Below, piece by piece: positions 1 to 18,921 of a stretch of 20,000 nt of DNA. The notes below the pieces were generated by a model. That model worked only from the letters and a program-made list of their open reading frames with translations, had not been told where the DNA came from and did not search any database. Both the position numbers and the translations under genes were made by a program. Each line of letters begins with the position of its first letter. The first letter of the stretch is position 1. The DNA is from an uncultured virus (IMG/VR IMGVR_UViG_3300038825_001787) (lineage: Duplodnaviria > Heunggongvirae > Uroviricota > Caudoviricetes): IMG/VR virus record IMGVR_UViG_3300038825_001787; one strand, 5' to 3'.

Positions 1-20
1 ATAGAAGAACTATTGAAGAG

Positions 21-1607
21 ATGCTCGCACGCGACGATTTTAGCACCAAAGAACTAAACAACAGTTTGTTTTTGACTAAAAGAAATGCTTGCGGCAAAAT
101 ACCATATGCCGATGGAACAGAAGCATATGACATCATAGAGTTACTACACTTGGAAAAATTCAAAGACCGAGTCCACTACAATTTACCGGTGGAACGTTTC
201 GATGAATTTATACCCATGTATGAATCTTTTTTCTTAACGAAAACAGAGTCACCATGGGTAAGAACACGACAAAGCCCAGAAATGGGGTATGAAGGCCGTT
301 GCACCATTGGTGCCGGCATTTATTACTGTCGTACCAATTATGAAATACACGAAGATGAAAACTACAATTACATCGTATCAACGTTTGACATATACACAAA
401 TAATTTATTTGACAATGCTGTTGAACTATACAATGGTGTAACACCTGCTTATTATTATAGGGGCACAGAGCCTCGACATATAGAAGCAGATACTGGACTA
501 TCCAGATTTTACGAGTTGTTAAAAACAGCGCCACAGAATACAGGCTCAACAGGCTCAACCCGCCAAGTAGTCAGGCACAACCTAACCAACTTGGAACGGT
601 TGTGGCAATGGAAAAGTGAACATCGCCTACCAGAAGTGAGGCGACATGCTATGGATACAAGTCGAGATAACATATCAGTTACCAGAAATGGACTGACTGC
701 TTGTGTTGCGATTCGTAAGGGGTTCAACCCCGCCCCAGGAGATCCAACGGCAGAAGCCGATAGGTCTTTGGGGGACTACGAGTTGACTAAAAGGTGGTTT
801 GGCAAGTCGACGGCAACTGAAAGGTTGCTATCAATGCGAAAGCGTCCCGTGTATTTAAATGAAACAAGAATAGTAACTACTACTAATTCTTTAACTAAGA
901 AAAAAAGTGACAAAATGTTTCAAGGCATTTTGGCACGGCAGCCCTCTGCTAATGGGATTGCCGACAACCCTTTTGCTTTTGCTCAGATCTTTACTACAAA
1001 CAGTAATGAACAGAGCGGGCAAGAACTACTTCGTTTGTTGAAAAACAGACTAAGTCCAAAGAATTACCCTGAAACCCAAAAAAAGGTCCTGTTGAAAGCC
1101 GGGGCCTTTGTAGGCAACAATCCGCCTGGTACGGATATAATAAGGATAGACCATGTTTTAACAAGCGCCATTTCTCTAGTAAGAAAAGGTGACTGTAATG
1201 AAAGAATTGGTGGACGCAACTTATATGACTTTTGTCGATTGAACGATGCAGAAGGAGTGTTTGAATTAACTCTCCCAAACAATGCAACACTACGACTAGA
1301 CAAGAAAGTGGCTACACTAGACAATGGTATATACAAAGTTTGTGTCACAGAAGACGTGACCGATATTATACAATATCTATCTACAATAAGGACTGCATTC
1401 GGCAGCGTAACTGTCGAAATAAAAAAGGGAAGACTAAACCTAGAAACAGGCTCAGTGAACGAAGTCCGTCGAAAAAGACGCGCTAGAATCATGAGTCCTT
1501 CTACTAACACAACTCCTACTTCGAGAAGAACAAGGTATGGAAGATTTAGACTAGGAAGTGCTTTTGGACTTTTAGGAAAAGAAAATAAAACGGATGAAAA
1601 TGAATAA
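21..1607 (+). CDS. Hypothetical protein, probably 5'-truncated by the window edge
   Basis: 528-aa ORF. The frame is open back to position 3. The stop lies in the junction hairpin at 1588-1614. No family recognised. Confidence 0.75.
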   Translation: MLARDDFSTKELNNSLFLTKRNACGKIPYADGTEAYDIIELLHLEKFKDRVHYNLPVERFDEFIPMYESFFLTKTESPWVRTRQSPEMGYEGRCTIGAGIYYCRTNYEIHEDENYNYIVSTFDIYTNNLFDNAVELYNGVTPAYYYRGTEPRHIEADTGLSRFYELLKTAPQNTGSTGSTRQVVRHNLTNLERLWQWKSEHRLPEVRRHAMDTSRDNISVTRNGLTACVAIRKGFNPAPGDPTAEADRSLGDYELTKRWFGKSTATERLLSMRKRPVYLNETRIVTTTNSLTKKKSDKMFQGILARQPSANGIADNPFAFAQIFTTNSNEQSGQELLRLLKNRLSPKNYPETQKKVLLKAGAFVGNNPPGTDIIRIDHVLTSAISLVRKGDCNERIGGRNLYDFCRLNDAEGVFELTLPNNATLRLDKKVATLDNGIYKVCVTEDVTDIIQYLSTIRTAFGSVTVEIKKGRLNLETGSVNEVRRKRRARIMSPSTNTTPTSRRTRYGRFRLGSAFGLLGKENKTDENE

Positions 1608-1619
1608 TCCGTTTACTAG

Positions 1620-2138
1620 ATGAAATATATTTGTAAAATATGTGATTTGGAATTCACGACAGAGGCAGCAGAAAAACTGCATAACTCTGTTTTTCACAAA
1701 AAGAAAGCCAAAGTAAAGACACCGAAAAAACCACCAAAGAAGGATAAACTCCTGGCAACTGATGCTAGGAAAGGATACCTTTCTCGTGGCGGTGAAAATA
1801 CCAAAGTATTCTTGCCCGATGGAAAGTCTACTAAATATAAAGACTACATCAAAGGAATGCGAGACGGCTTTCCTGACTTCAAAGTCGGCGATAAAATCGC
1901 TGCGAAAGAAGTTAGAAATTTGTTTAAGCACGATATATATAATACAAAAGATATCAAAGGTGCTAAACTGGAAGTTAAAAGAATTGTCAAAAATAAGAAT
2001 GGTATTAGAAGATACTATTTGGAGAACAGCAAAGTGCGATTGACGTGGTCCGAAGGGGTCGCTTTCAAGAGTCATGCTGAAAGAAAAATGCGTGACAAGC
2101 ATATTATACTTCCAATTAATTTGTTTCACAAAAAGTGA
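1620..2138 (+). CDS. Basic protein with N-terminal C2H2-type zinc finger
   Basis: CKIC-x11-H-x4-H at the N-terminus. ATG directly follows ACTAG. Confidence 0.8.
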   Translation: MKYICKICDLEFTTEAAEKLHNSVFHKKKAKVKTPKKPPKKDKLLATDARKGYLSRGGENTKVFLPDGKSTKYKDYIKGMRDGFPDFKVGDKIAAKEVRNLFKHDIYNTKDIKGAKLEVKRIVKNKNGIRRYYLENSKVRLTWSEGVAFKSHAERKMRDKHIILPINLFHKK

Positions 2139-2147
2139 AACTACTAG

Positions 2148-2225
2148 ATGAGTTCGGAAGATAACCCCATGCGGGCCTTCCCATTAAGTAAGAACAATGA
2201 TATCAGGAATTTTGAGTGTGGTTAG
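2148..2225 (+). CDS. Putative 25-aa peptide (MSSEDNPMRAFPLSKNNDIRNFECG)
   Basis: Not in the ORF track. ATG follows hairpin GTTTCAC/GTGAAAC + tACTAG, and the stop lies in the next junction hairpin. Confidence 0.5.
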   Translation: MSSEDNPMRAFPLSKNNDIRNFECG

Positions 2226-2245
2226 AATATAACCACATTCATCAG

Positions 2246-2440
2246 ATGAGTAAAATAGAAGATGACGTATGTCAACAAATACAAGACCGTGCCAAAGTGG
2301 GGCTAAACAAATATGGAACCACTATGGAGCGTACTGACCTTTCTACAATAGACTGGTTGGAACACGCCAAACAAGAAGCAATGGATCTTGTCATATACTT
2401 AGAGCGTATCATACAAGATATGCGTGAGAAGGAAGAATGA
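2246..2440 (+). CDS. Conserved phage-type small helical protein (KYGTT...W..HA.QEAMD motif; possibly all-alpha NTP-pyrophosphatase-like)
   Basis: Motif recalled from phage hypothetical proteins. Start moved to ATG 2246, which follows an 11-bp hairpin + ATCAG. Confidence 0.75.
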   Translation: MSKIEDDVCQQIQDRAKVGLNKYGTTMERTDLSTIDWLEHAKQEAMDLVIYLERIIQDMREKEE

Positions 2441-2455
2441 ATCTTCCATTACTAG

Positions 2456-2737
2456 ATGGAAATCAAAATTAAAATGGAACCCGAAGACATACCAAAAATA
2501 TTGAAGGGGATTGGAAACGTCGAACAACCGGCAGAGTCTGTTGTTGAGAAACGTGCCAAAAGGGCCGACATTGGACAAAACAGAGTCCCCTGGTCGAAAA
2601 GAGAGAAGGCTTGGCTGAAAAAGCAGGCAAGACCAACCATTGATAACGGTCATCATCGGCAAGAATTGAAAGAAATGTTTGGCAATATCCGAACAGCGAA
2701 GTCAATAGATGCTTGTTGGAGAAGACTTACCAATTGA
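2456..2737 (+). CDS. Putative Myb/SANT-like HTH DNA-binding protein
   Basis: PWSKREKAWL...FGNIRTAKSIDACWRRL resembles a Myb repeat. Motif-linked start. Confidence 0.7.
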   Translation: MEIKIKMEPEDIPKILKGIGNVEQPAESVVEKRAKRADIGQNRVPWSKREKAWLKKQARPTIDNGHHRQELKEMFGNIRTAKSIDACWRRLTN

Positions 2738-2790
2738 TTGAGCATAACATAGTAAGATTAATTACTAACTATGTTTCCTCAATTTACTAG

Positions 2791-2991
2791 ATGACACTGA
2801 TGCCAAAGCAAAGTGAGAACCTGGGACTAGAAATCTCAGAGCCTATATACAGGCTGGCAACAAGCATATACGAAAAGCACAATTCCAAGGTCTTAGCAGG
2901 CAGTGGAAAATGGATGCCCACAAACGTAGCGGTTGACTTGGCAAAAAAAATGCTAAGTGAAACGAATGCTAGTCGGTCTAATACTAGATGA
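2791..2991 (+). CDS. Hypothetical protein
   Basis: 66-aa ORF with motif-linked ATG. Its stop overlaps the next ATG (ATGA). Confidence 0.6.
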   Translation: MTLMPKQSENLGLEISEPIYRLATSIYEKHNSKVLAGSGKWMPTNVAVDLAKKMLSETNASRSNTR

Positions 2992-4220
2992 GTAATATAA
3001 ACGAAAATCAAGGATACGCAGTTGAAGGAAGATTGAAAGAAACAGCCAAAGGGTATTTAGCCCTCTGGTCAATTAATGCAGGTAGGATGAGATATTCCGA
3101 CCTTGTTACTGTTGCTAAGCGCAATGGTTTAACACAGGGTCAGATACCGAAACTACGAACCGCAAAGAATGCTTTTGCAGTTGCAAAGGATACTATACTT
3201 AACTCCGCATTACCAACACTCTTAGAATTAGATGGTTGGGATGGAGCGGTCAAACAAAGTTTAGATGTTAAACATCTAAAAAGAGGAAATGAATACCAAG
3301 TCTCGGTTAGACGAGAAGGTAGAATGCATGGGAAGTTGCACAAGGAAAGTTCTCCAGTCTTTAGACTGGAATTCTCTCCTCCAGATGCCTTTGACCATGT
3401 TGCATGGGTACAAAACTACATGCGCTCTTTTTGGGATGCTGAATACATCAAAGAAATTGAAGCAGGTACTAAACAAAGACCTGTACCTAGTCAAACTAGG
3501 GTTTGTATACGTATAGAAGGCTATTGGGATGACAGCGATATTGACGTCGAGTTGATGTTGAGAGTCAGAGACCGAATAAGCCAAGCATTTGAAGATACTA
3601 TTGTTAGTATTGACGAAACGCTTTTGCGACAACACATTAAAGAGACATTGAAATCTTTAAACGGTATTAGTTTCCTTGCAGGCAAGGGGGCTACATATAT
3701 TCCCATTACAGACGAGGACAGAGATTCAAAATCTGCGTCTTTGGAGTCTATGGCTAATATTATCACCTCTTTTTCTAGAGGATACCAAACAACCGCAAAC
3801 GATGAAAACTACTATGACGAGAATGGCAAACCCATCAATCGTTATGGAACATCAAGTAATTTTAGATATCTAGGATACCTAGATAGCGAAAGAGAGATGC
3901 AGTACATAAGAGAAGATTTGGGTTCCAGTATTTCGAGAGAAATAGCGGAGTTCCAAGCAGAAGTCGTTAAGACTGCTGCCTCTTTTGATACAACTAAAGT
4001 CGAACTTTTCGAGAAGCAACTTACCAAATTGCAGAGAAAGAAAACTAATATTACTAAAAGAATCGGCAATATGCGCACAACATTGGGCGGAGAGATTCCT
4101 ATTCGTAGGAGACTCCATTCTGATGTTCAGCAAAGATTTGGTAGCCGAATCTCAAACATAACTCAGACCCACAATGCAGTTAGTACTACATTGATGAAGT
4201 TAACTGAGTTTGACAATTGA
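2988..4220 (+). CDS. Hypothetical protein, resembles DUF6744-like family, with C-terminal coiled coil
   Basis: 410-aa ORF. Patterns GYLALWS...GL...IP...AF and GISF..G.GATYIP were recalled from that family and not verified by search. Confidence 0.75.
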   Translation: MSNINENQGYAVEGRLKETAKGYLALWSINAGRMRYSDLVTVAKRNGLTQGQIPKLRTAKNAFAVAKDTILNSALPTLLELDGWDGAVKQSLDVKHLKRGNEYQVSVRREGRMHGKLHKESSPVFRLEFSPPDAFDHVAWVQNYMRSFWDAEYIKEIEAGTKQRPVPSQTRVCIRIEGYWDDSDIDVELMLRVRDRISQAFEDTIVSIDETLLRQHIKETLKSLNGISFLAGKGATYIPITDEDRDSKSASLESMANIITSFSRGYQTTANDENYYDENGKPINRYGTSSNFRYLGYLDSEREMQYIREDLGSSISREIAEFQAEVVKTAASFDTTKVELFEKQLTKLQRKKTNITKRIGNMRTTLGGEIPIRRRLHSDVQQRFGSRISNITQTHNAVSTTLMKLTEFDN

Positions 4221-4238
4221 GGCTAATGCCTCTTACTA

Positions 4239-4954
4239 GAAAGTAAATACAACTGATGCCCTTCGGGGCAAATGACGTATCGCCGAAAATTCCGGTAGAG
4301 CACGCTCTACAGGAACGGCTCATCCTCCGGAACTGCTTCAGGCTGCTGCGCAGACTACTGCGTATCTGAAGCCTTTACCCTAACATCCCTATCACCTTGC
4401 GGCTCCGCTGCGGTGAAACGGAATGTAAACGGGCACGCCTAAACTACAGTTTCCTCGAGCGAGTAAACTGGTTTAACGGCTAATCCTACGGAATAACAAT
4501 CAGGATTTAGTCCTGATAGTATGAGCCTATTTACCGCCTCTACCCTCATTGGGGTAACCCAATTAACCTTCTAAAGAAGGGAGGGCGAGAGGCTTCGGCT
4601 CCTCGGAACTACTACGGCACGAACCAAGATTGAGTTAATCAGTCAAGAGAAATATAAGTACCCGCGTACTGACATTTCACATGACTTACTCAATTTTCAT
4701 GACTTACCCTATGTAGAAACATAGATTTGAACAACTTGAGGCGGCTCTGCGCTGCCCTAAAGGGACATCAAATCTCTGCGTCTACCCCTAGTAAGTCACG
4801 AAAGTTCATACCTTGAGCCACGGTGGAATCCAGAAACAAGTCTTCTGGATTCTGCCCTGCAACTGTATGCTCTGCGGAACCCCGCATACAACGTTGCGGC
4901 TTGGCTCAACCGGTTCATCGCCAAGTTCCTCGGAAAATAGTTTTACTTTCACTA
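4239..4954 (+). ncRNA. Candidate large structured RNA, about 715 nt, family unassigned
   Basis: Bounded by ACTAG sites. No credible ORF. Dense hairpins, including TGCCC-TTCG-GGGCA at 4257-4270. Ends pair: GAAAGTAAA 4239-4247 with TTTACTTTC 4942-4950. Confidence 0.65.
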
Positions 4955-4983
4955 GAGCCTCGAAAGAGGAAGAGTTGATTGAC

Positions 4984-5376
4984 ATGATTGAAGAAAGAAA
5001 CAACATAGTTGACCAAGCAATTACTGATGTAGCACCCGCTACACCAATTGCTGAGCAACCCAAGAAAACAAAAATGGCGCCCATAACGAATGAAATATTT
5101 ATTCGTATGTGGAACCAATCTGAATATGTCAATGATGCAGCAGAGGCGATGGGTATGAACCCCGCTTCTGCAAGAGCAAGGGCCGCAAAACTGAGGGCTA
5201 TATTTGCGAAAGCAGGTGTAGAAATACAGTTGAAGAAACACCCTAAAGCACCAAGAAAGCAAAAGAAGTCGTTGGTCAATGACCTAGACGAACTTGAAAG
5301 ACTTGCTGCGATTGCTAAAGCATCATTACCATCAGAGCCAGCAACACAAAGTGCACCATCAGAGCAATCTGAATGA
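4984..5376 (+). CDS. Putative HTH-like nucleic-acid-binding protein, 130 aa
   Basis: Start moved to ATG 4984, which lies downstream of ACTAG 4951 and a purine-rich leader. FIRMWNQSEYVNDAAEAMGMNPASARARAAKLR is HTH-like and is followed by a basic patch. Confidence 0.7.
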   Translation: MIEERNNIVDQAITDVAPATPIAEQPKKTKMAPITNEIFIRMWNQSEYVNDAAEAMGMNPASARARAAKLRAIFAKAGVEIQLKKHPKAPRKQKKSLVNDLDELERLAAIAKASLPSEPATQSAPSEQSE

Positions 5377-5394
5377 AACACTTGTGTTCTACTA

Positions 5395-5949
5395 GAGAGA
5401 ACTAAAACACCGATGCCGAACAAGCATGTGACGTAAATTAGTAAATTAGAGATTACACATAGCAAGGAAGTCAAACTGATTTTCTGCTAAATCTAAATCT
5501 GCATGGTGATCCAAGCAAGTAATCACGAATGGAATAAATCCACTCGCTGATTTGTATAGGGCAGTTGCCCTACTCAAATCTTACCTGCCCAGGGTCACCA
5601 GCACAATTAGAATAAAGAATTCACATTCGTGAATTAAACTACCACCACATTAGAACGGTAGTCTGCCTTAGAATTAATTTTTTAACATCCGCAACTGGAA
5701 ACGTTCCGCGTGTCTTCACATTCACCTTTACAAAGTAAAGGCCGCACAATACTGTGCCACCAACAGTGAGGTAAAATCCTCACAACATTGGTTGAATGTT
5801 CCAAACACAGCGTCCGAGTTCCAATGCGGAACACCAAAAATCAATAAAAGTTAAACACTAAAACTAGGCAGCATTAAACTGCCAAAGTAAAGCGGCTTAT
5901 ATAAGCCCAATAGTAAAACTTGAAACACTAAAAACTAGAACTCTCACTA
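5395..5949 (+). ncRNA. Candidate large structured RNA, about 555 nt, family unassigned
   Basis: Bounded by ACTAG sites. No + strand ORF of 60 aa or more. Many hairpins joined by A-rich linkers. Ends pair: GAGAG 5395-5399 with CTCTC 5941-5945. Confidence 0.6.
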
Positions 5950-6025
5950 GATAGACCACCATATTTTATATTCATCACCATGAAAAAATAATGGTTTATA
6001 TGACAATCGGGAAAGACCGGTACCA
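5950..6025 (+). ncRNA. Possible 76-nt small RNA ending in hairpin-ACCA (not a cloverleaf tRNA)
   Basis: Lies between ACTAG 5946 and ACCAG 6022. Long interrupted hairpin (TAGACCA/TGGTTTA) plus ATCGG-gaaaga-CCGGT. Confidence 0.3.
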
Positions 6026-6026
6026 G

Positions 6027-6098
6027 ATGAACAAAACTAAACCACTACAACAACTCAATGCTGATTTCCTAAAAAAAGATTGGACGTATGAAAAATGA
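6027..6098 (+). CDS. Putative 23-aa peptide (MNKTKPLQQLNADFLKKDWTYEK)
   Basis: ATG directly follows hairpin + ACCAG variant. Confidence 0.35.
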   Translation: MNKTKPLQQLNADFLKKDWTYEK

Positions 6099-6110
6099 CG
6101 CTTTTAATTT

Positions 6111-6281
6111 ATGGACGCATGGATTAAAAATGAAAGTATACTTGTTGGAAAAGGCGACAGGGGTAAAACCCGGCTCTGTGGTCACAAGTTTTGCGTCGGA
6201 CACCATGAAAGAATGGAACACTATGCTGTGGGCCCGAGCGGTGACAGTCATATTGTTAAAAGGGGTGAGATTCCCCACTAG
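6111..6281 (+). CDS. Putative 56-aa Cys/His-containing protein (alternative frame: ORF 6088-6285)
   Basis: MDAWIKNESILVGKGDRGKTRLCGHKFCVGHHERMEH... ends on the TAG of the ACTAG site. The coding frame is ambiguous. Confidence 0.3.
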   Translation: MDAWIKNESILVGKGDRGKTRLCGHKFCVGHHERMEHYAVGPSGDSHIVKRGEIPH

Positions 6282-7514
6282 ATGAATATCAAATGGAAGA
6301 CAGAAGAGACGCGTTGTATCCATAAAGACCCACGGGACTTTAGCAGATGCAAAATTAAAGACGTTAAACCTGGAGAATACTTATGTGAACACCATAAGTA
6401 CGATCTCGCATCATTTGTAAATGACCCAACAGCCTGTATTGATATTATGGCTGAAAGGTTTCCAAAAAGACATCATCCTGCCTGTGACCGCAAAGGAGAA
6501 AATGACTGCGAATGTCATGACTACTCTAGAGGCGCAAGTATGATGATTACCATGAAGGCTGCTTTCAAAGAAAGCAAACTTCAGAGTAAACTATACCAAA
6601 AACACTTGAAAGTAACGATGGCTGATAAAGTCCGTCGAATCAAGAACTATTATAGGAATATAACAGAGGATGATATATATCTACCTCCCTATAGTAATTT
6701 TAGACAGTATAGATTTTTCACATGGGAACCAAAGAGTCAGAGAATCGTTGTCAAAGTATTGAAAGATAATGTAAGGACAAAGAAAATTCTGCTCAGTCAT
6801 CTACGAAGACTGGCACCTATACACGTGTATTACACAACAGGTCAATGGCTAAATCCGCAAGGAATTGGTCCTGACCCTGAATCACGTAAAGGTTTAGCCA
6901 AGATGCGAAAGAAAGGTTGGTGCGCTAAAAAAAGTAAGAAAGTTACTTTGAAGCGATACCATAACACCATGTTGAAACGAGATTTATATTTCGATATAGA
7001 TTACGACAACAAAGACTATCATCAAGGAATAAGGATGGCCGACGAACTAATACATGCAATAAATAAACACATTCATTGTTATCAGTTCAACGGCGTAAAA
7101 CAACAAATCGTATTTAGTGGAGGCAAAGGCTTCCACTTGATAATAAACGGATACTATGACGAAGCGTTTACTAGACCTAGTAAGCGTAAATTGTACGACC
7201 TATTGAGAAGAGAGGCTATAAAAAAAGGCGAAGATAAAAACGCCGCTTTCTTACGCTACTCTGTCAACCACGAAAACAAAAATGCAGCGATTGAAAACCA
7301 CTACAAAGACATAGTGGATATTCTGCAATACGAAACAGACCTTTTGTTAGATTGGATGGTTACATATGATAACCGTAGAATAATACGATTGCCTGGAAGC
7401 GTGCATGGAAAGTCCATGCGTGTTTGTAAGGAAATTAATTTTAGTGACGATAATGTTATTAAAAACCGTGCTGGAAAACCCGTTGGGTATGTTCCAGCAG
7501 ACCCCATTCCTTGA
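6282..7514 (+). CDS. priS: Archaeo-eukaryotic primase catalytic subunit (PriS-like) with Cys/His-rich N-terminal extension
   Basis: AEP motifs DLYFDIDYD, VFSGGKGFHL and DWMVTYDNRRIIRLPGSVHGKS, plus APIHVYYT resembling PriS P.HVYYS. Confidence 0.88.
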   Translation: MNIKWKTEETRCIHKDPRDFSRCKIKDVKPGEYLCEHHKYDLASFVNDPTACIDIMAERFPKRHHPACDRKGENDCECHDYSRGASMMITMKAAFKESKLQSKLYQKHLKVTMADKVRRIKNYYRNITEDDIYLPPYSNFRQYRFFTWEPKSQRIVVKVLKDNVRTKKILLSHLRRLAPIHVYYTTGQWLNPQGIGPDPESRKGLAKMRKKGWCAKKSKKVTLKRYHNTMLKRDLYFDIDYDNKDYHQGIRMADELIHAINKHIHCYQFNGVKQQIVFSGGKGFHLIINGYYDEAFTRPSKRKLYDLLRREAIKKGEDKNAAFLRYSVNHENKNAAIENHYKDIVDILQYETDLLLDWMVTYDNRRIIRLPGSVHGKSMRVCKEINFSDDNVIKNRAGKPVGYVPADPIP

Positions 7515-7523
7515 GGTTACTAG

Positions 7524-8060
7524 ATGACAAATGAAATTGAATTTTATGTTGATGGCTCTGCCATCAATAATGAGAATCCAAATGTACGAACTCTTGGAGG
7601 TATAGGTGTTTACAGACGCACTAACTCAGAGAACGGTATTAATATTTTAACTGCCCGACCAGATCAAGAATGGGCAATAAATGTTGATGACGGTGGCGTA
7701 GCGTTGAGGCGTGAAATCCCATTAGATTTGGGAAAAGTAACAAACAATACTACCGAACTGGCTGCAATATACTATGTTCTTCTGATAATAAAACTGAACC
7801 ATAAATATGACAATTGCATAATATACGGAGACTCGCAATACGCGGGTAACTTAGTATTTGGAAACTGGAAAGCAAAACAAAACAAGGAACTAGTTGCTAA
7901 GGTTAAAGCCCTGGCAAAAACAGTTCCTAATGTCACATGGGAATATGTGAAAGCACACGATGGCAATGTCTACAATGAATATGCAGACTACCTTGCCAAA
8001 TCTGGTGCATACAACAGAACCCCACTACCATTCGATGAATGGAAAGAAACGGAATTTTAA
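7524..8060 (+). CDS. rnhA: Ribonuclease HI
   Basis: FYVDGSA, TNNTTELAAI, IYGDSQYA and VKAHDGNVYNEYADYLAK supply the D-E-D-H-D catalytic set. Confidence 0.93.
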   Translation: MTNEIEFYVDGSAINNENPNVRTLGGIGVYRRTNSENGINILTARPDQEWAINVDDGGVALRREIPLDLGKVTNNTTELAAIYYVLLIIKLNHKYDNCIIYGDSQYAGNLVFGNWKAKQNKELVAKVKALAKTVPNVTWEYVKAHDGNVYNEYADYLAKSGAYNRTPLPFDEWKETEF

Positions 8061-12729: not shown

Positions 12730-12740
12730 TGCGTTACTAG

Positions 12741-13589
12741 ATGTATAATGAAGATAACATTAAAGAAAAGAGATTACAAATAACGACTTTGACCGAAGAA
12801 GAACACGAGAAACTCAGAAACTTAACACTTTCTGAAGTAAAGGTTACTCCGGTCTGCATGGGTGCAAAAGTTGGTTGTCACTTGGCCGAATGGCCTAGTG
12901 GTAGAACCGGCAAAGCGCACTTCTGTAACGGTGATGGATTAGATGTTAATTACTATGTATTACTTAGTGACAACTCTAACGATGAACTAATTCGTGCTCA
13001 CGCAGTGGGTAAATGTAATCATACACACTTGGATATTGCCAGAAGAAATATTGATGGCAAAAACAAAAGACAAAGAAAAAAGGACATGAAAGCCGCATTC
13101 AAAGATTTGAGGGAACTCATTCTTTTAGTCGGCAGCAACTTAGAACAATTCTATACCGCTTGGCGTATTTCACTACGACCAAGTGATAAAGAGTTCTTTG
13201 AACTGTTTATGGACTACAAGCGAGACATGGCGCTGGCAGAATGTTTGGTGATGCTTAATTCGGAAGAATACCGCAACACTGTACCACGATTACCAGAAGA
13301 AAGTGACTTTGCTTGGGACAAGAGATTTAGACAACAGGCTGTATTGCACTTAGATGCTATACAAGAACTAGCAACAGGAAGTTATGCTGAATTCCAAATG
13401 GATGAAGAAGACTATGCTAATCTAACTGCTGCTATTAGAGTCTCTATGGTTCAACTAAAAAATCAACGTTCTTTGAACAATTGTTTTTTGAAGTTTAATA
13501 GCGAATCTGCACTTGCTCTTTTCATTGAGCGAGCAGGATACGGACACTTAATGTCTGATGATATTAAACAAAGATGGTTAGGAGAATAA
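12741..13589 (+). CDS. Hypothetical protein
   Basis: 282-aa ORF with a Cys/His-rich N-terminal half. Motif-linked start. Confidence 0.8.
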   Translation: MYNEDNIKEKRLQITTLTEEEHEKLRNLTLSEVKVTPVCMGAKVGCHLAEWPSGRTGKAHFCNGDGLDVNYYVLLSDNSNDELIRAHAVGKCNHTHLDIARRNIDGKNKRQRKKDMKAAFKDLRELILLVGSNLEQFYTAWRISLRPSDKEFFELFMDYKRDMALAECLVMLNSEEYRNTVPRLPEESDFAWDKRFRQQAVLHLDAIQELATGSYAEFQMDEEDYANLTAAIRVSMVQLKNQRSLNNCFLKFNSESALALFIERAGYGHLMSDDIKQRWLGE

Positions 13590-15062: not shown

Positions 15063-15413
15063 ATGAGAAAACGTGGAACGTTAAATGAAAGAGACCCCTT
15101 TACAACCGAAGTTGAAATCAACGAGCCCGATAGGATTCGTTGGCCAATTAGGTGTAGAGCGGTTATCGACACGGGTGCGACAAGAACTTCTATTGATGAA
15201 GGATTGGCTCGCACACTGAATCTCAAACCCGCTGGTCGGGTTAGAGTAAGAAATGCAATGGGAGTACAAAAAAGGAAACTAGTTTGGCTACAAATAGATG
15301 TCTTTAATGAAACAATTATACTAAAGGCTTCTATTACTAATAGATCTAAACTATCCTGTCCTATACTTATAGGAAGAGATATACTACATAATGCATATGA
15401 GGAGGAAGAATGA
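15063..15413 (+). CDS. Retropepsin-like (clan AA) aspartic protease
   Basis: AVIDTGATRTSID catalytic motif and C-terminal ILIGRDIL. Confidence 0.85.
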   Translation: MRKRGTLNERDPFTTEVEINEPDRIRWPIRCRAVIDTGATRTSIDEGLARTLNLKPAGRVRVRNAMGVQKRKLVWLQIDVFNETIILKASITNRSKLSCPILIGRDILHNAYEEEE

Positions 15414-16610: not shown

Positions 16611-17189
16611 CTACTAGAATGGAAATCAAAATAGACATTAGTGTAAAACAAATACTAACTCTATGCGGTATACAACAAGAGATTGACAAAAAGGAAGTCG
16701 CTAGACTTCGTAAAAATGCCAATAACCGAAGATACCGTGAAAGAAACAGAGAAATAATCAATGCTAGAAAAAAACTGTATCGCGAAAAGAATCGTGAGAA
16801 GATAAAAGCAAGAAGACGCGAGATTCACAAAGCGAATCCTGAGAAGAAGTCGATGTCTGACCGCAAGTATTACGAAAAGAATCGTGAAAAGATAATTGCA
16901 AAAAGACGTGAGTGGGATGAAGCAAATCCTGAGAAAAGAAATGCGTATGACCGCAAGTATTACGAAAAGAATCGTGAAAAGATATTAGCGAGAAAACGCG
17001 CACGCTATCACGCAGACAAAGAGGACTAATCCTCTACTAGAATGGAAATCAAAATAGACATTAGTGTAAAACAAATACTAACTCTATGCGGTATACAACA
17101 AGAGATTGACAAAAAGGAAGTCGCTAGACTTCGTAAAAATGCCAATAACCGAAGATACCGTGAAAGAAACAGAGAAATAATCAATGCTA
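16611..17189 (+). repeat. 156-bp exact direct repeat (16611-16766 and 17034-17189)
   Basis: Identical from CTACTAGAATGGAAATC to ...ATCAATGCTA. Confidence 0.95.
16619..17029 (+). CDS. Basic helical repeat protein (YREKNREKI-type repeats)
   Basis: 15/30-aa periodic repeats, with a 37-bp exact internal repeat at 16858-16894 and 16948-16984. Confidence 0.8.
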   Translation: MEIKIDISVKQILTLCGIQQEIDKKEVARLRKNANNRRYRERNREIINARKKLYREKNREKIKARRREIHKANPEKKSMSDRKYYEKNREKIIAKRREWDEANPEKRNAYDRKYYEKNREKILARKRARYHADKED

Positions 17190-17404
17190 AACAACGCCTA
17201 TATCGCAATAAAAATTTAGAACGATTGAAGGTTAAGCAAGAGGAATGGCGTAAAGCCAACCCTGAAAAACGCGCGGCACAAGCCCGACGATACCGTGAGA
17301 AACACCGCGAGAAGTTGGCTAGAAAACAGCGTGAATATATGAAAAGAAAGAAGGAGCAATCCTCTACTAGATGGAAGAAAAAATTGAATGCTCAATTTGT
17401 TTGA
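17042..17404 (+). CDS. Paralogous basic repeat protein; apparent stop-loss at 17357-17359
   Basis: First about 49 codons are identical to the 16619 gene. It reads through the junction and overlaps the next gene by 34 nt. Confidence 0.72.
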   Translation: MEIKIDISVKQILTLCGIQQEIDKKEVARLRKNANNRRYRERNREIINAKQRLYRNKNLERLKVKQEEWRKANPEKRAAQARRYREKHREKLARKQREYMKRKKEQSSTRWKKKLNAQFV

Positions 17405-17678: not shown

Positions 17679-17795
17679 ATGAGTGATTTACACGATGAAA
17701 TAATTGCATGGCGTTCCCATTTAAGGAACGAAAATGCTACTAGTCACGTCTCTGATGAACATATGCCATATATTGGCGAGTTTATTGGAGAGTGA
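17679..17795 (+). CDS. 38-aa hypothetical protein
   Basis: Not in the ORF track. MSDLHDEIIAWRSHLRNENATSHVSDEHMPYIGEFIGE, with motif-linked start and the stop in the next hairpin. Confidence 0.55.
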   Translation: MSDLHDEIIAWRSHLRNENATSHVSDEHMPYIGEFIGE

Positions 17796-17805
17796 ACTTA
17801 CTAGA

Positions 17806-18921
17806 ATGAGTAAAGAATTTGAAACAAAAATAATATACAAGAAAACCAGCACAGGCAAAATCCAGCAATGGCAAGCCTGGGTTGAAAAGACTGAAACTGG
17901 ATATCTGTTAAAAGTTAGATCGGGTCAAACCGATGGTAAACTTACAGAAACAACAGGACAGGTTATTGATGAAGGTAAGCAAAAGCGTACCGCAAAGGAG
18001 CAAGCAGTTTTTGAGGCTAACTCAAAAGTTAACAAGAAACTAGATGAAGGATATTCTGACAGCATTGAAAGTGCTAAGAATTACGTCAAGTTGCTACCGA
18101 TGCTGGCACATTCTTTTGCTAAGCGAAAGCACAACATCAACTATCCTGCAATTGTTCAGAGAAAATTTGACGGTGTACGATGTCTAGCCATCCTAAAGGA
18201 TGACGGCACTGTATCACTAATGTCAAGAAAAGGAAAAGAATTTCCTCACATGAATCATATCAGAAAAGATATTGCTGCCAATAACAGTGATACTACTTTG
18301 ATACTTGATGGTGAATTATATTCTGATACCTTGTCTTTCCAAGTACTGGTTGGACTTGTAAAACGTGTTACACTGAAAGAAGGAAATGATGAGCAAATGC
18401 TCCAAGTTTCCCTACGTGTATACGATTGTATAAAATTAAACGAAGAACCTGGGTTTCAACAAAGACACGAGATGATTGCCAAAGTAACAGATGGCGCAAA
18501 TTATCTTTCTTTAGTTGAAAACTTTACAGTGGAATCTGAAAAGGAAATCCACGAAGCACAGGCTCGATTCGTAGAAGAAGGCTATGAAGGTGCTATGGTT
18601 AGAAACATAACCGGAGCATATGCCATCGGAAAAAGAAGTGCTAATTTACAGAAAGTGAAAACTTTCTTAGACGGCGAATACGAAATCGTCGGCTTTAACC
18701 AAGCCTCAGGAAATGACATTGGAACGGTTATCTGGGTGTGTAAAACACCGGAAGGAAACCAGTTCAACGTCAGACCTCGTGGTACGAGAGAAGTAAAAAG
18801 AGAACAATACGAAAACGGTGATTCTTACATTGGGCGACATTTGACTGTCCGATATCAAGAATTAACCGATGACGGTGTTCCAAGATTCCCAGTGGGAATA
18901 GCAATTCGTGATTACGAATAA
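17806..18921 (+). CDS. lig: ATP-dependent DNA ligase
   Basis: Motif I QRKFDGVR, motif III ILDGELY, motif IV GYEGAMVR, motif V LQKVK and C-terminal VPRFP. Start moved to 17806 (ACTAGA-ATG). Confidence 0.93.
   Translation: MSKEFETKIIYKKTSTGKIQQWQAWVEKTETGYLLKVRSGQTDGKLTETTGQVIDEGKQKRTAKEQAVFEANSKVNKKLDEGYSDSIESAKNYVKLLPMLAHSFAKRKHNINYPAIVQRKFDGVRCLAILKDDGTVSLMSRKGKEFPHMNHIRKDIAANNSDTTLILDGELYSDTLSFQVLVGLVKRVTLKEGNDEQMLQVSLRVYDCIKLNEEPGFQQRHEMIAKVTDGANYLSLVENFTVESEKEIHEAQARFVEEGYEGAMVRNITGAYAIGKRSANLQKVKTFLDGEYEIVGFNQASGNDIGTVIWVCKTPEGNQFNVRPRGTREVKREQYENGDSYIGRHLTVRYQELTDDGVPRFPVGIAIRDYE

Follow-up and report, generated by a model that had tools for sequence, protein, structure and literature searches.

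A large, conserved RNA absent from Rfam, set between gene-start signals in an uncultured marine virus lineage

Among the large, ornate RNAs of bacteria and phages, those that best bear comparison with the element described here are GOLLD and ROOL (Rumen-Originating, Ornate, Large), carried by phages or prophages, and OLE, a chromosomal RNA of Bacillota with membrane-protein partners. A cryo-electron microscopy (cryo-EM) preprint on all three describes OLE as a dimer and GOLLD and ROOL as RNA-only cages, and has phage-borne large RNAs assembling via kissing loops, some of them palindromic; in GOLLD, symmetric kissing loops, some palindromic, hold the assemblies together. GOLLD usually lies beside transfer RNA (tRNA) genes in phages or prophages, a context that is typical, not strictly defining, and OLE contains a protein-bound kink-turn (PMC9723947). 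The subject here is RNA-1, a structured non-coding unit at positions 4236-4955 on the + strand of a 20,000-nucleotide stretch of DNA (the window) from an uncultured virus (IMG/VR IMGVR_UViG_3300038825_001787). It measures 720 nucleotides (nt) counted from CTAG to ACTAG, contains no open reading frame (ORF) and has been found in 22 full copies. On balance I favor the view that RNA-1 encodes a large structured RNA of several domains, independent of other transcripts, that belongs to an uncultured marine virus lineage and to a family absent from Rfam.

In kind, RNA-1 is what the large ornate phage RNAs are: longer than 500 nt, non-coding, built of covarying helices and rich in conserved unpaired nucleotides. 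Like GOLLD, RNA-1 is phage-borne, belongs to the 600-900 nt class, has many helices and a conserved core beside a variable part, and occurs in marine metagenomes; where GOLLD has symmetric kissing loops, RNA-1 has an invariant palindromic loop. Unlike GOLLD, it matches no Rfam model, has no tRNA neighbors, is set inside a gene-junction signal, and has its conserved blocks spread over the whole molecule, not gathered in the 3' region. With ROOL, RNA-1 shares a phage or prophage carrier, large size, a variable linker and the lack of a known protein partner; it differs in matching no Rfam model, in its habitat and in having no tRNA islands near. Like OLE, it is of the class of about 600 nt and has highly conserved unpaired nucleotides between its helices; unlike OLE, it is phage-borne and matches nothing in Rfam.

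Two other kinds of element invite comparison. Optional phage introns of groups I and II resemble RNA-1 in size, in their paired ends and in their exact presence or absence among related phages. Unlike them, RNA-1 lies between genes, matches no intron model and has borders that break the splice-site rules of both groups. T4-type phages carry repeated promoter/stem-loop cassettes (PeSL) that flank shuffled genes. These too are short repeated regulatory units at gene borders where small cassettes come and go; here, unlike there, the unit is a variable hairpin with a 5-nt motif that runs directly into the start codon, and the cassettes include a large RNA.

The conserved fold of RNA-1

The initial annotation of the window, made from its letters, had singled out a gap lacking a credible ORF and richer in G+C than its flanks, and both observations stand. 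The longest stop-free + frame inside RNA-1 runs to 59 codons (4761-4940), a frame of 193 codons at 4795-5376 being a mere upstream extension of the next gene's frame, and G+C is 0.45-0.49 over 4201-5000 against about 0.39 in the flanks. The G-C skew is negative over 4000-6200, unlike in the remainder of the window. The same annotation had proposed that the unit is a viral non-coding RNA as large as GOLLD or ROOL. The homologues bear it out: their structure is conserved, with compensatory changes and with G-U pairs that are kept on the + strand.

These homologues come from 36 loci, one from IMG/VR and 35 from metagenomes, collected by alignment of the 410-amino-acid protein encoded just upstream. 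That protein has 29 relatives at 44-100% identity, some with Tara source labels, on contigs that reach 143 kb; the carriers are probably tailed phages with genomes near 140 kb. Searches with blocks of RNA-1 sorted the loci into 19 with a full copy downstream of the 410-amino-acid gene, 9 in which the copy is cut by the contig end, 6 whose contigs end before the site and 2 (L005 and L007) without RNA-1. Together with the window, and with two copies each in L024 and L027, this makes 22 full copies, of 580-977 nt, the 580-nt one being that of L012 (6034-6613).

Twenty-one of the copies were aligned (alignment A2), and invariance was counted over columns with at least 95% occupancy. No fewer than 165 of 391 such columns are invariant, the longest unbroken runs reaching 13 nt; identity of the flanking protein in the same loci is only 43-72%. 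Near-identical blocks alternate with segments that differ wholly in sequence and length, which are hypervariable hairpin insertions. The RNAalifold consensus has 51 pairs in 9 helices, and 99.2% of the 1069 cells (one pair in one sequence) are paired. Compensatory changes occur at 9 of these pairs and in 33 cells, against means of 4.4 and 8.3 after shuffling; in pairing, in compensatory counts and in covariation score alike, all 500 shuffles fall short of the real alignment. When the partners are slid by 1-3 columns, 33-47% of cells are paired and 1-2 pairs show compensatory changes. This is the fairer control, because the kinship of the sequences makes the shuffle figure generous. G-U pairs are conserved in 20-21 of the 21 sequences; on the opposite strand they would be A-C mismatches, and they therefore point to an RNA of the + strand. 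An all-against-all screen of columns that allowed G-U proved too noisy and went unused.

What the copies of RNA-1 conserve is the fold, and no reading frame. It would be hard to give any credence to the idea that it is a decayed coding sequence, or a structure at the DNA level only, the case that the initial annotation had named as its own refutation. The - strand does fold well, which counts in its favor, but the invariant blocks spare no codon position, no frame is conserved and indels are of any length, and the compensatory changes and + strand G-U pairs contradict it further.

Folding energy contributes less. The RNA-1 region has a minimum free energy (MFE) of -286.5 kcal/mol (z -12.69 on the + strand, -10.24 on the -), and the MFE structure of the window sequence already holds the helices P1, P2, P3 and P4 described below. 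Energy alone is non-specific, because coding controls of 755 nt (z -7.55, -9.22 and -2.48) also fold far better than shuffles; the next gap has z -9.45. A sliding-window scan of z with a weak swap shuffle (8 shuffles) gave negative values nearly everywhere and was discarded. The coding controls at 3200-3954 and 6400-7154 (z -7.6 and -9.2 against dinucleotide shuffles) are an oddity of their own, unusual for phage coding DNA, and junction hairpins account for only part of their strong folding.

The architecture is one in which P1 clamps the ends, P3, P4 and P6 enclose a central domain and the 3' domain ends in P9. P1, a closing helix of 9 base pairs that joins 4239-4247 (GAAAGTAAA) to 4942-4950 (TTTACTTTC), directly before ACTAG, had been seen in the initial annotation and is supported by the homologues: its six pairs 4239-4244/4945-4950 are formed in 21 of 21, and one of them changes from G-C to A-U in 5 sequences. 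Lengthening it by CUAG:CUAG pairing was considered and rejected, for ACCAG variants break the extension. Just upstream of its 3' strand, the bases T-A-G (4938-4940) are invariant in all 21 sequences, and both the window and the majority consensus have UAGU there. P2, the hairpin UGCCC-UUCG-GGGCA (4257-4270), shows compensatory changes in 2 of its 5 pairs. It sits in a 5' module, CYGAUG-hairpin-NRUGACGUA, whose CUGA ... AUGA around a hairpin may be kink-turn-like, going by the kink-turn consensus. A helix UUAC/GUAA within the 5' arm is tentative.

P3 is a long-range helix of 6 pairs (GCCGAA 4282-4287 with UUCGGC 4594-4599), with 99.2% of its cells paired and one compensatory change. Within it, P6 joins GCC 4536-4538 to GGC 4591-4593 and has compensatory changes in 2 of 3 pairs, in 5 and 3 sequences. 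P4 (GGCUCA 4317-4322 with UGAGCC 4522-4527) is predicted both by RNAalifold and by MFE; covariation cannot test it, because it is invariant in 21 of 21. P5, the hairpin CACC-UU-GCGGC-UCC-GCUGC-GGUG (4393-4415), is nearly invariant, with a G-U pair (4401/4409) conserved in 21 of 21. P9, at 4894-4933 in the 3' domain, has 10 pairs, and 3 of these show compensatory changes; the palindrome AACCGGUU (4908-4915), invariant in 21 of 21, lies in its loop of 14 nt.

The variable segments fold as well, 6 of 8 doing better than shuffles (z below -2) in 19-21 of 21 sequences. The segments var4 and var5 were folded sequence by sequence, the sub-alignment of var4 having register shifts that make it unfit for RNAalifold. 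A three-tier hairpin at 4437-4480 (var4) keeps the same closing anchors in 21 of 21 around many different stems (z below -2 in 20 of 21), and the hairpin at 4493-4521 (var5), ATCAGGA/TCCTGAT in the window, forms in all 21 sequences on 15 different outer stems (z below -2 in 21 of 21). The counts are lower for var2 (z below -2 in 11 of 18 sequences) and var3 (10 of 19). Of the hairpins listed in the initial annotation, those at 4257-4270, 4290-4315, 4336-4372, 4499-4517, about 4567-4580 (CCTTC/GAAGG), 4709-4724 and 4828-4850 hold up. The small GC-TTCG-GC at about 4592 does not, as its bases are the 3' strands of the long-range helices P6 (4591-4593) and P3 (4594-4599).

None of the known families that the initial annotation had listed (GOLLD, ROOL, OLE, RNase P, group I and II introns, transfer-messenger RNA or tmRNA) is matched. 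Rfam at gathering score gives no match in the window; at E<=10 over 4000-6400 it gives five chance-level matches, the sole one touching RNA-1 being to a small nucleolar RNA model (4925-4996, - strand, 16.7 bits against a cut-off of 44); and at E<=1 it gives nothing in ten related loci. ARAGORN finds neither tRNA nor tmRNA in the window or in 21 loci. Membership in GOLLD, ROOL or OLE was rejected for want of a covariance-model match in the window, 4000-6400 or the ten related loci, RNase P RNA and tmRNA likewise (Rfam; ARAGORN), and known small self-cleaving ribozymes have no model match at or near the junctions.

The element is no better known by sequence. Comparison by blastn with GenBank phages returns nothing for 4200-5000 nor for 1-8000, a first scan of viral contigs with a single flanking protein had no match, and core patterns of RNA-1 find only one IMG/VR contig, already among the collected loci. 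Two such patterns occur in none of 185,579 species genomes, and no host or prophage was identified from them. Searches of the full-text literature brought up no description of RNA-1 or of the junction motif. Sequencing runs that hold the stretch come from 13 studies with marine, seawater, estuary, aquatic and viral-metagenome labels. Contigs from four RNA libraries (four runs, four studies) cover patchily the genes, parts of RNA-1 and of a second RNA, RNA-2, and relatives with other variable modules.

Among the words sampled from 2900-6400, roughly one in four is listed for two marine RNA libraries, X16 and X17, made by oligo-dT poly-A selection, and a 3.6-kb contig of X16 runs from the 410-amino-acid gene into RNA-1. 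Their presence is likely a matter of A-rich internal priming or DNA carry-over.

A cassette between two gene-start signals

All credible genes of the window lie on the + strand, and nearly every one begins in the same manner: a hairpin, 0-2 bases, A(C/T)(C/T)AG (AYYAG) and ATG. The hairpin is short and variable in sequence, and often has the stop codon of the preceding gene inside it. AYYAGATG occurs 33 times in the window against 3.0 expected, all 33 on the + strand (for example 1615-1622, 2983-2990, 7519-7526 and 12736-12743), and the stem-AYYAG-ATG signal is present in 37 of 37 related loci. With AYYAG fused to ATG there is no space for a Shine-Dalgarno site; coupling, RNA cutting or leaderless messages may be the mechanism, and in the case of cutting AG/AU may suit the loose preference of RNase E.

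RNA-1 is a cassette between two copies of this signal, and can be absent or doubled. ACTAG stands at both of its borders, 4235-4239 and 4951-4955, as the initial annotation had it when it described the unit as bracketed by the signal. On the 5' side the junction (4219-4239, + strand) consists of the hairpin GAGGC-TAAT-GCCTC (4219-4232), whose 5' arm overlaps the upstream stop codon, then TT, then ACTAG, so that 4233-4239 reads TTACTAG. A(C/T)TAG is found at the 5' junction in 22 of 22 copies, directly preceded by a clear local hairpin in 21; the exception, copy b of L024, is preceded by the end of copy a and has only a weak fold. On the 3' side, ACTAG (4951-4955, + strand) is followed in the window by a small hairpin and then by the next gene's leader. 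In 11 of the 22 copies the ATG of the next gene comes directly after P1-AYYAG. There P1 is the sole stem before AYYAG-AUG, and it can form only in an RNA of 600-900 nt, which suggests to me that the junction signal works in RNA.

The empty site is found in L007, where a hairpin and CTCTTACTAG are followed at once by the downstream gene's leader. At the same point in its relative L001, 670 nt of RNA lie between two copies of ACTAG; the compared stretches beside the site are alike, and the flanks overall are 96.5% and 92.8% identical. The same pattern is seen in a separate sub-lineage between L005 (empty) and L003 (RNA present), so that exact presence or absence at the pentamer is established in two, L001/L006 against L007 and L003/L004 against L005. 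In the 11.2 kb of L005 and 9.5 kb of L007 that were read, RNA-1 is absent and the gene-start signal is kept, in 14 and 13 copies respectively. L024 and L027 have two copies of RNA-1 each, those of L024 in tandem, and the copies as a whole occupy at least 4 junction contexts. Variable modules are common to lineages whose flanking proteins are only about 50% identical: the window over 4375-4820 is 78% identical to L013, and its core is most similar to that of L031.

Such behavior raises the possibility of an intron-like or mobile RNA cassette, selfish in nature, that is removed or inserted at the repeated A(C/T)TAG, whether by RNA splicing or at the DNA level. The exact presence and absence in two sub-lineages, the setting of both junctions side by side by P1, the tandem pair and the other junction contexts, and the modules common to diverged lineages all speak for it. 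Group I introns have a U just ahead of the 5' splice site and end in G, and group II introns begin with GUGYG and contain a domain V. RNA-1 misfits the group I rule because the shared pentamer makes the last exon base the same letter as the last intron base, both borders lying in the same repeated pentamer, and its 5' end reads (CUAG)AAAGUA or AGAGUA, not GUGYG. Both intron groups were rejected on these grounds and for want of a model match, and there is no match to a self-cleaving ribozyme model either. No contig of the four RNA libraries joins across 4240-4955, which is weak evidence. It is difficult, moreover, to explain 165 invariant columns across diverged phages without some function for the carrier. 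I consider the idea unlikely.

A contig of X16 (depth 2.9) skips 5935-6276, about 340 nt, with 10 other letters at the joint, and the skipped stretch begins and ends beside ACTAG motifs (5934-5938 and 6277-6281). This is probably a strain without the small-ORF cassettes, a joint at the RNA level being the alternative. Since the skip falls at ACTAG, gain and loss at the motif may be a matter of general cassette turnover, not specific to RNA-1, and this too tells against a mobile RNA.

A second possibility is that RNA-1 serves in cis, as a translation or stability element of the downstream gene or as part of a replication origin or primer RNA. In its favor are the direct succession P1-AYYAG-AUG in half of the copies, the negative G-C skew and the position just upstream of a primase-like gene (6282-7514, + strand) and an RNase H gene (7524-8060, + strand), 1.3 kb downstream. 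However, the downstream gene is intact and has its own leader where RNA-1 is absent, and ordinary genes make do with a simple hairpin at that place, which renders a conserved fold of 600-900 nt superfluous. Doubled copies and free exchange of modules misfit an origin, and conserved G-U pairs favor a structure in RNA over one in DNA. A role of this sort is quite improbable.

The second RNA and the neighboring genes

The next gap, 5377-6281, opens with a hairpin-TACTAG (5376-5395) and contains RNA-2, a second structured non-coding unit different from RNA-1 (5391-5950, + strand), with ACTAG at 5391-5395 and 5946-5950. The two have in common the 5' module (CYGAUG, hairpin, NRUGACGUA) and the 3' end ACUCUC-ACUAG, and nothing more. 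Identity of RNA-2 is about 88-92% across five close loci and drops to 71% for L003 and L005; in more distant loci its 3' end alone is recognizable. The RNAalifold consensus of 8 sequences has 125 pairs, 26 with compensatory changes, and a long helix joins the ends. RNA-2 is retained in both L005 and L007.

This pair of RNAs bears on the suggestion of the initial annotation that the unit might be a ribozyme or ribonucleoprotein scaffold that recognizes hairpin-ACUA sites. RNA-1, with RNA-2, would be the catalytic or guide RNA of a machinery that recognizes or cuts every hairpin-AYYAG junction. Each of the two bears the junction motif at both ends, they have both end modules in common, and beside its closing helix each has a sequence complementary to ACUA, UAGU in RNA-1 and CUAG at the matching place in RNA-2, over 4 nt only. 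The very high conservation would suit a ribozyme. Yet L005 and L007, in the parts read, keep 14 and 13 signals without RNA-1, although RNA-2 could substitute for it. Complementarity over four bases means little, no known ribozyme fold or motif was found, and cutting at the junctions is itself an assumption. The suggestion is not supported, and I think such a role very unlikely. I give as little weight to the broader form of the idea, in which RNA-1 and RNA-2, as ribozyme or guide scaffold, would be the RNA parts of a machinery serving the whole phage, and the transcript would be cut, or cut and then rejoined, wherever a stem-AYYAG junction occurs. Were that true, messages would begin at AUG, RNA-2 would be the constant copy and RNA-1 an optional paralogue, and the same chemistry would explain cassette gain and loss exactly at the pentamer.

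The gene upstream of RNA-1 (2988-4220, stop 4218-4220, + strand) precedes it in every locus that carries it. The 410-amino-acid product belongs to no Pfam or PHROG family. Its structural model, a confident one (predicted local distance difference test score, pLDDT, 81), has a ferredoxin-like domain and a long helical tail; Foldseek gives it no match at E<=0.001, and a wide structural search returns a generic ferredoxin-like match alone (Z 8.3, 69 residues), from which no function is derivable. The downstream gene (4975-5376, + strand, starting at TTG 4975 or ATG 4984) has no family match.

Farther along, the window encodes an ATP-dependent DNA ligase (17734-18921, + strand), whose best relatives are in uncultured huge phages at merely 38.5% identity, an HNH protein and several small proteins that match phage families without assigned function. 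A 116-amino-acid protein (15063-15413) has a domain of the retropepsin-like aspartyl proteases (gag-asp_proteas, E 7e-8), which is an unusual find among the replication genes of a phage. A direct repeat of 182 nt, 95% identical and 423 nt apart, extends across two adjacent genes at 16611-17215, and 69-nt repeats at 16732-17025 are spaced 45, 90 and 90 nt from start to start.

A proposed role for RNA-1

That RNA-1 represents a new family and functions as a structured RNA is, to my mind, very likely. That it acts as a stand-alone RNA, in trans, is a better bet than the alternatives but a good deal less certain. I propose that RNA-1 would be transcribed together with the adjacent + strand genes, and then either released at both junctions or kept as a stable domain with protected ends. 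During infection it may act in trans as a scaffold, a role also suggested for GOLLD and ROOL. Its invariant unpaired blocks may make tertiary contacts or bind a conserved partner. Self-association is suggested because GOLLD, ROOL and OLE, as described in the preprint, assemble by kissing loops, and RNA-1 has in the loop of P9 the invariant palindrome AACCGGUU, a candidate symmetric kissing loop. Whether homo-oligomers are in fact formed I regard as doubtful.

Several observations weigh against a stand-alone RNA as I have drawn it. RNA-1 is dispensable in at least two relatives, L005 and L007. Its folding energy does not set it apart in this genome, and the shuffle control overstates the significance of the pairing, the sequences being related. 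Much of the core being invariant, covariation speaks neither for nor against P4 and P5, nor does it decide on two alternative helices, 4600-4609/4925-4934 and 4816-4819/4898-4901; most of the 3' domain does not vary, and alternative long-range helices there are neither confirmed nor rejected. There is no tRNA beside RNA-1 in the window or the 21 loci, unlike at typical GOLLD and ROOL loci. The RNA-library data are assembled contigs that may hold DNA, and gaps in their cover are uninformative. As for self-association, the palindrome never varies and hence offers no covariation for an intermolecular pair, and to meet a palindrome of 8 nt by chance in one loop or another would not be uncommon.

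A trans-acting RNA of this kind would nonetheless repay attention. Few bacterial and phage RNAs are as large and as complex, and every class known to date has led to new biology. What is unusual in this one is the presence of 165 invariant positions beside a protein that has diverged to 43-72% identity. RNA-1 swaps hairpin modules between lineages, adjoins another large RNA whose end motifs are the same, and forms part of a stem-AYYAG-AUG junction code that extends over the genome. At its length the transcript lends itself to probing and cryo-EM, for which the uncultured host is not needed, and the close relatives with and without RNA-1 amount to a natural knock-out.

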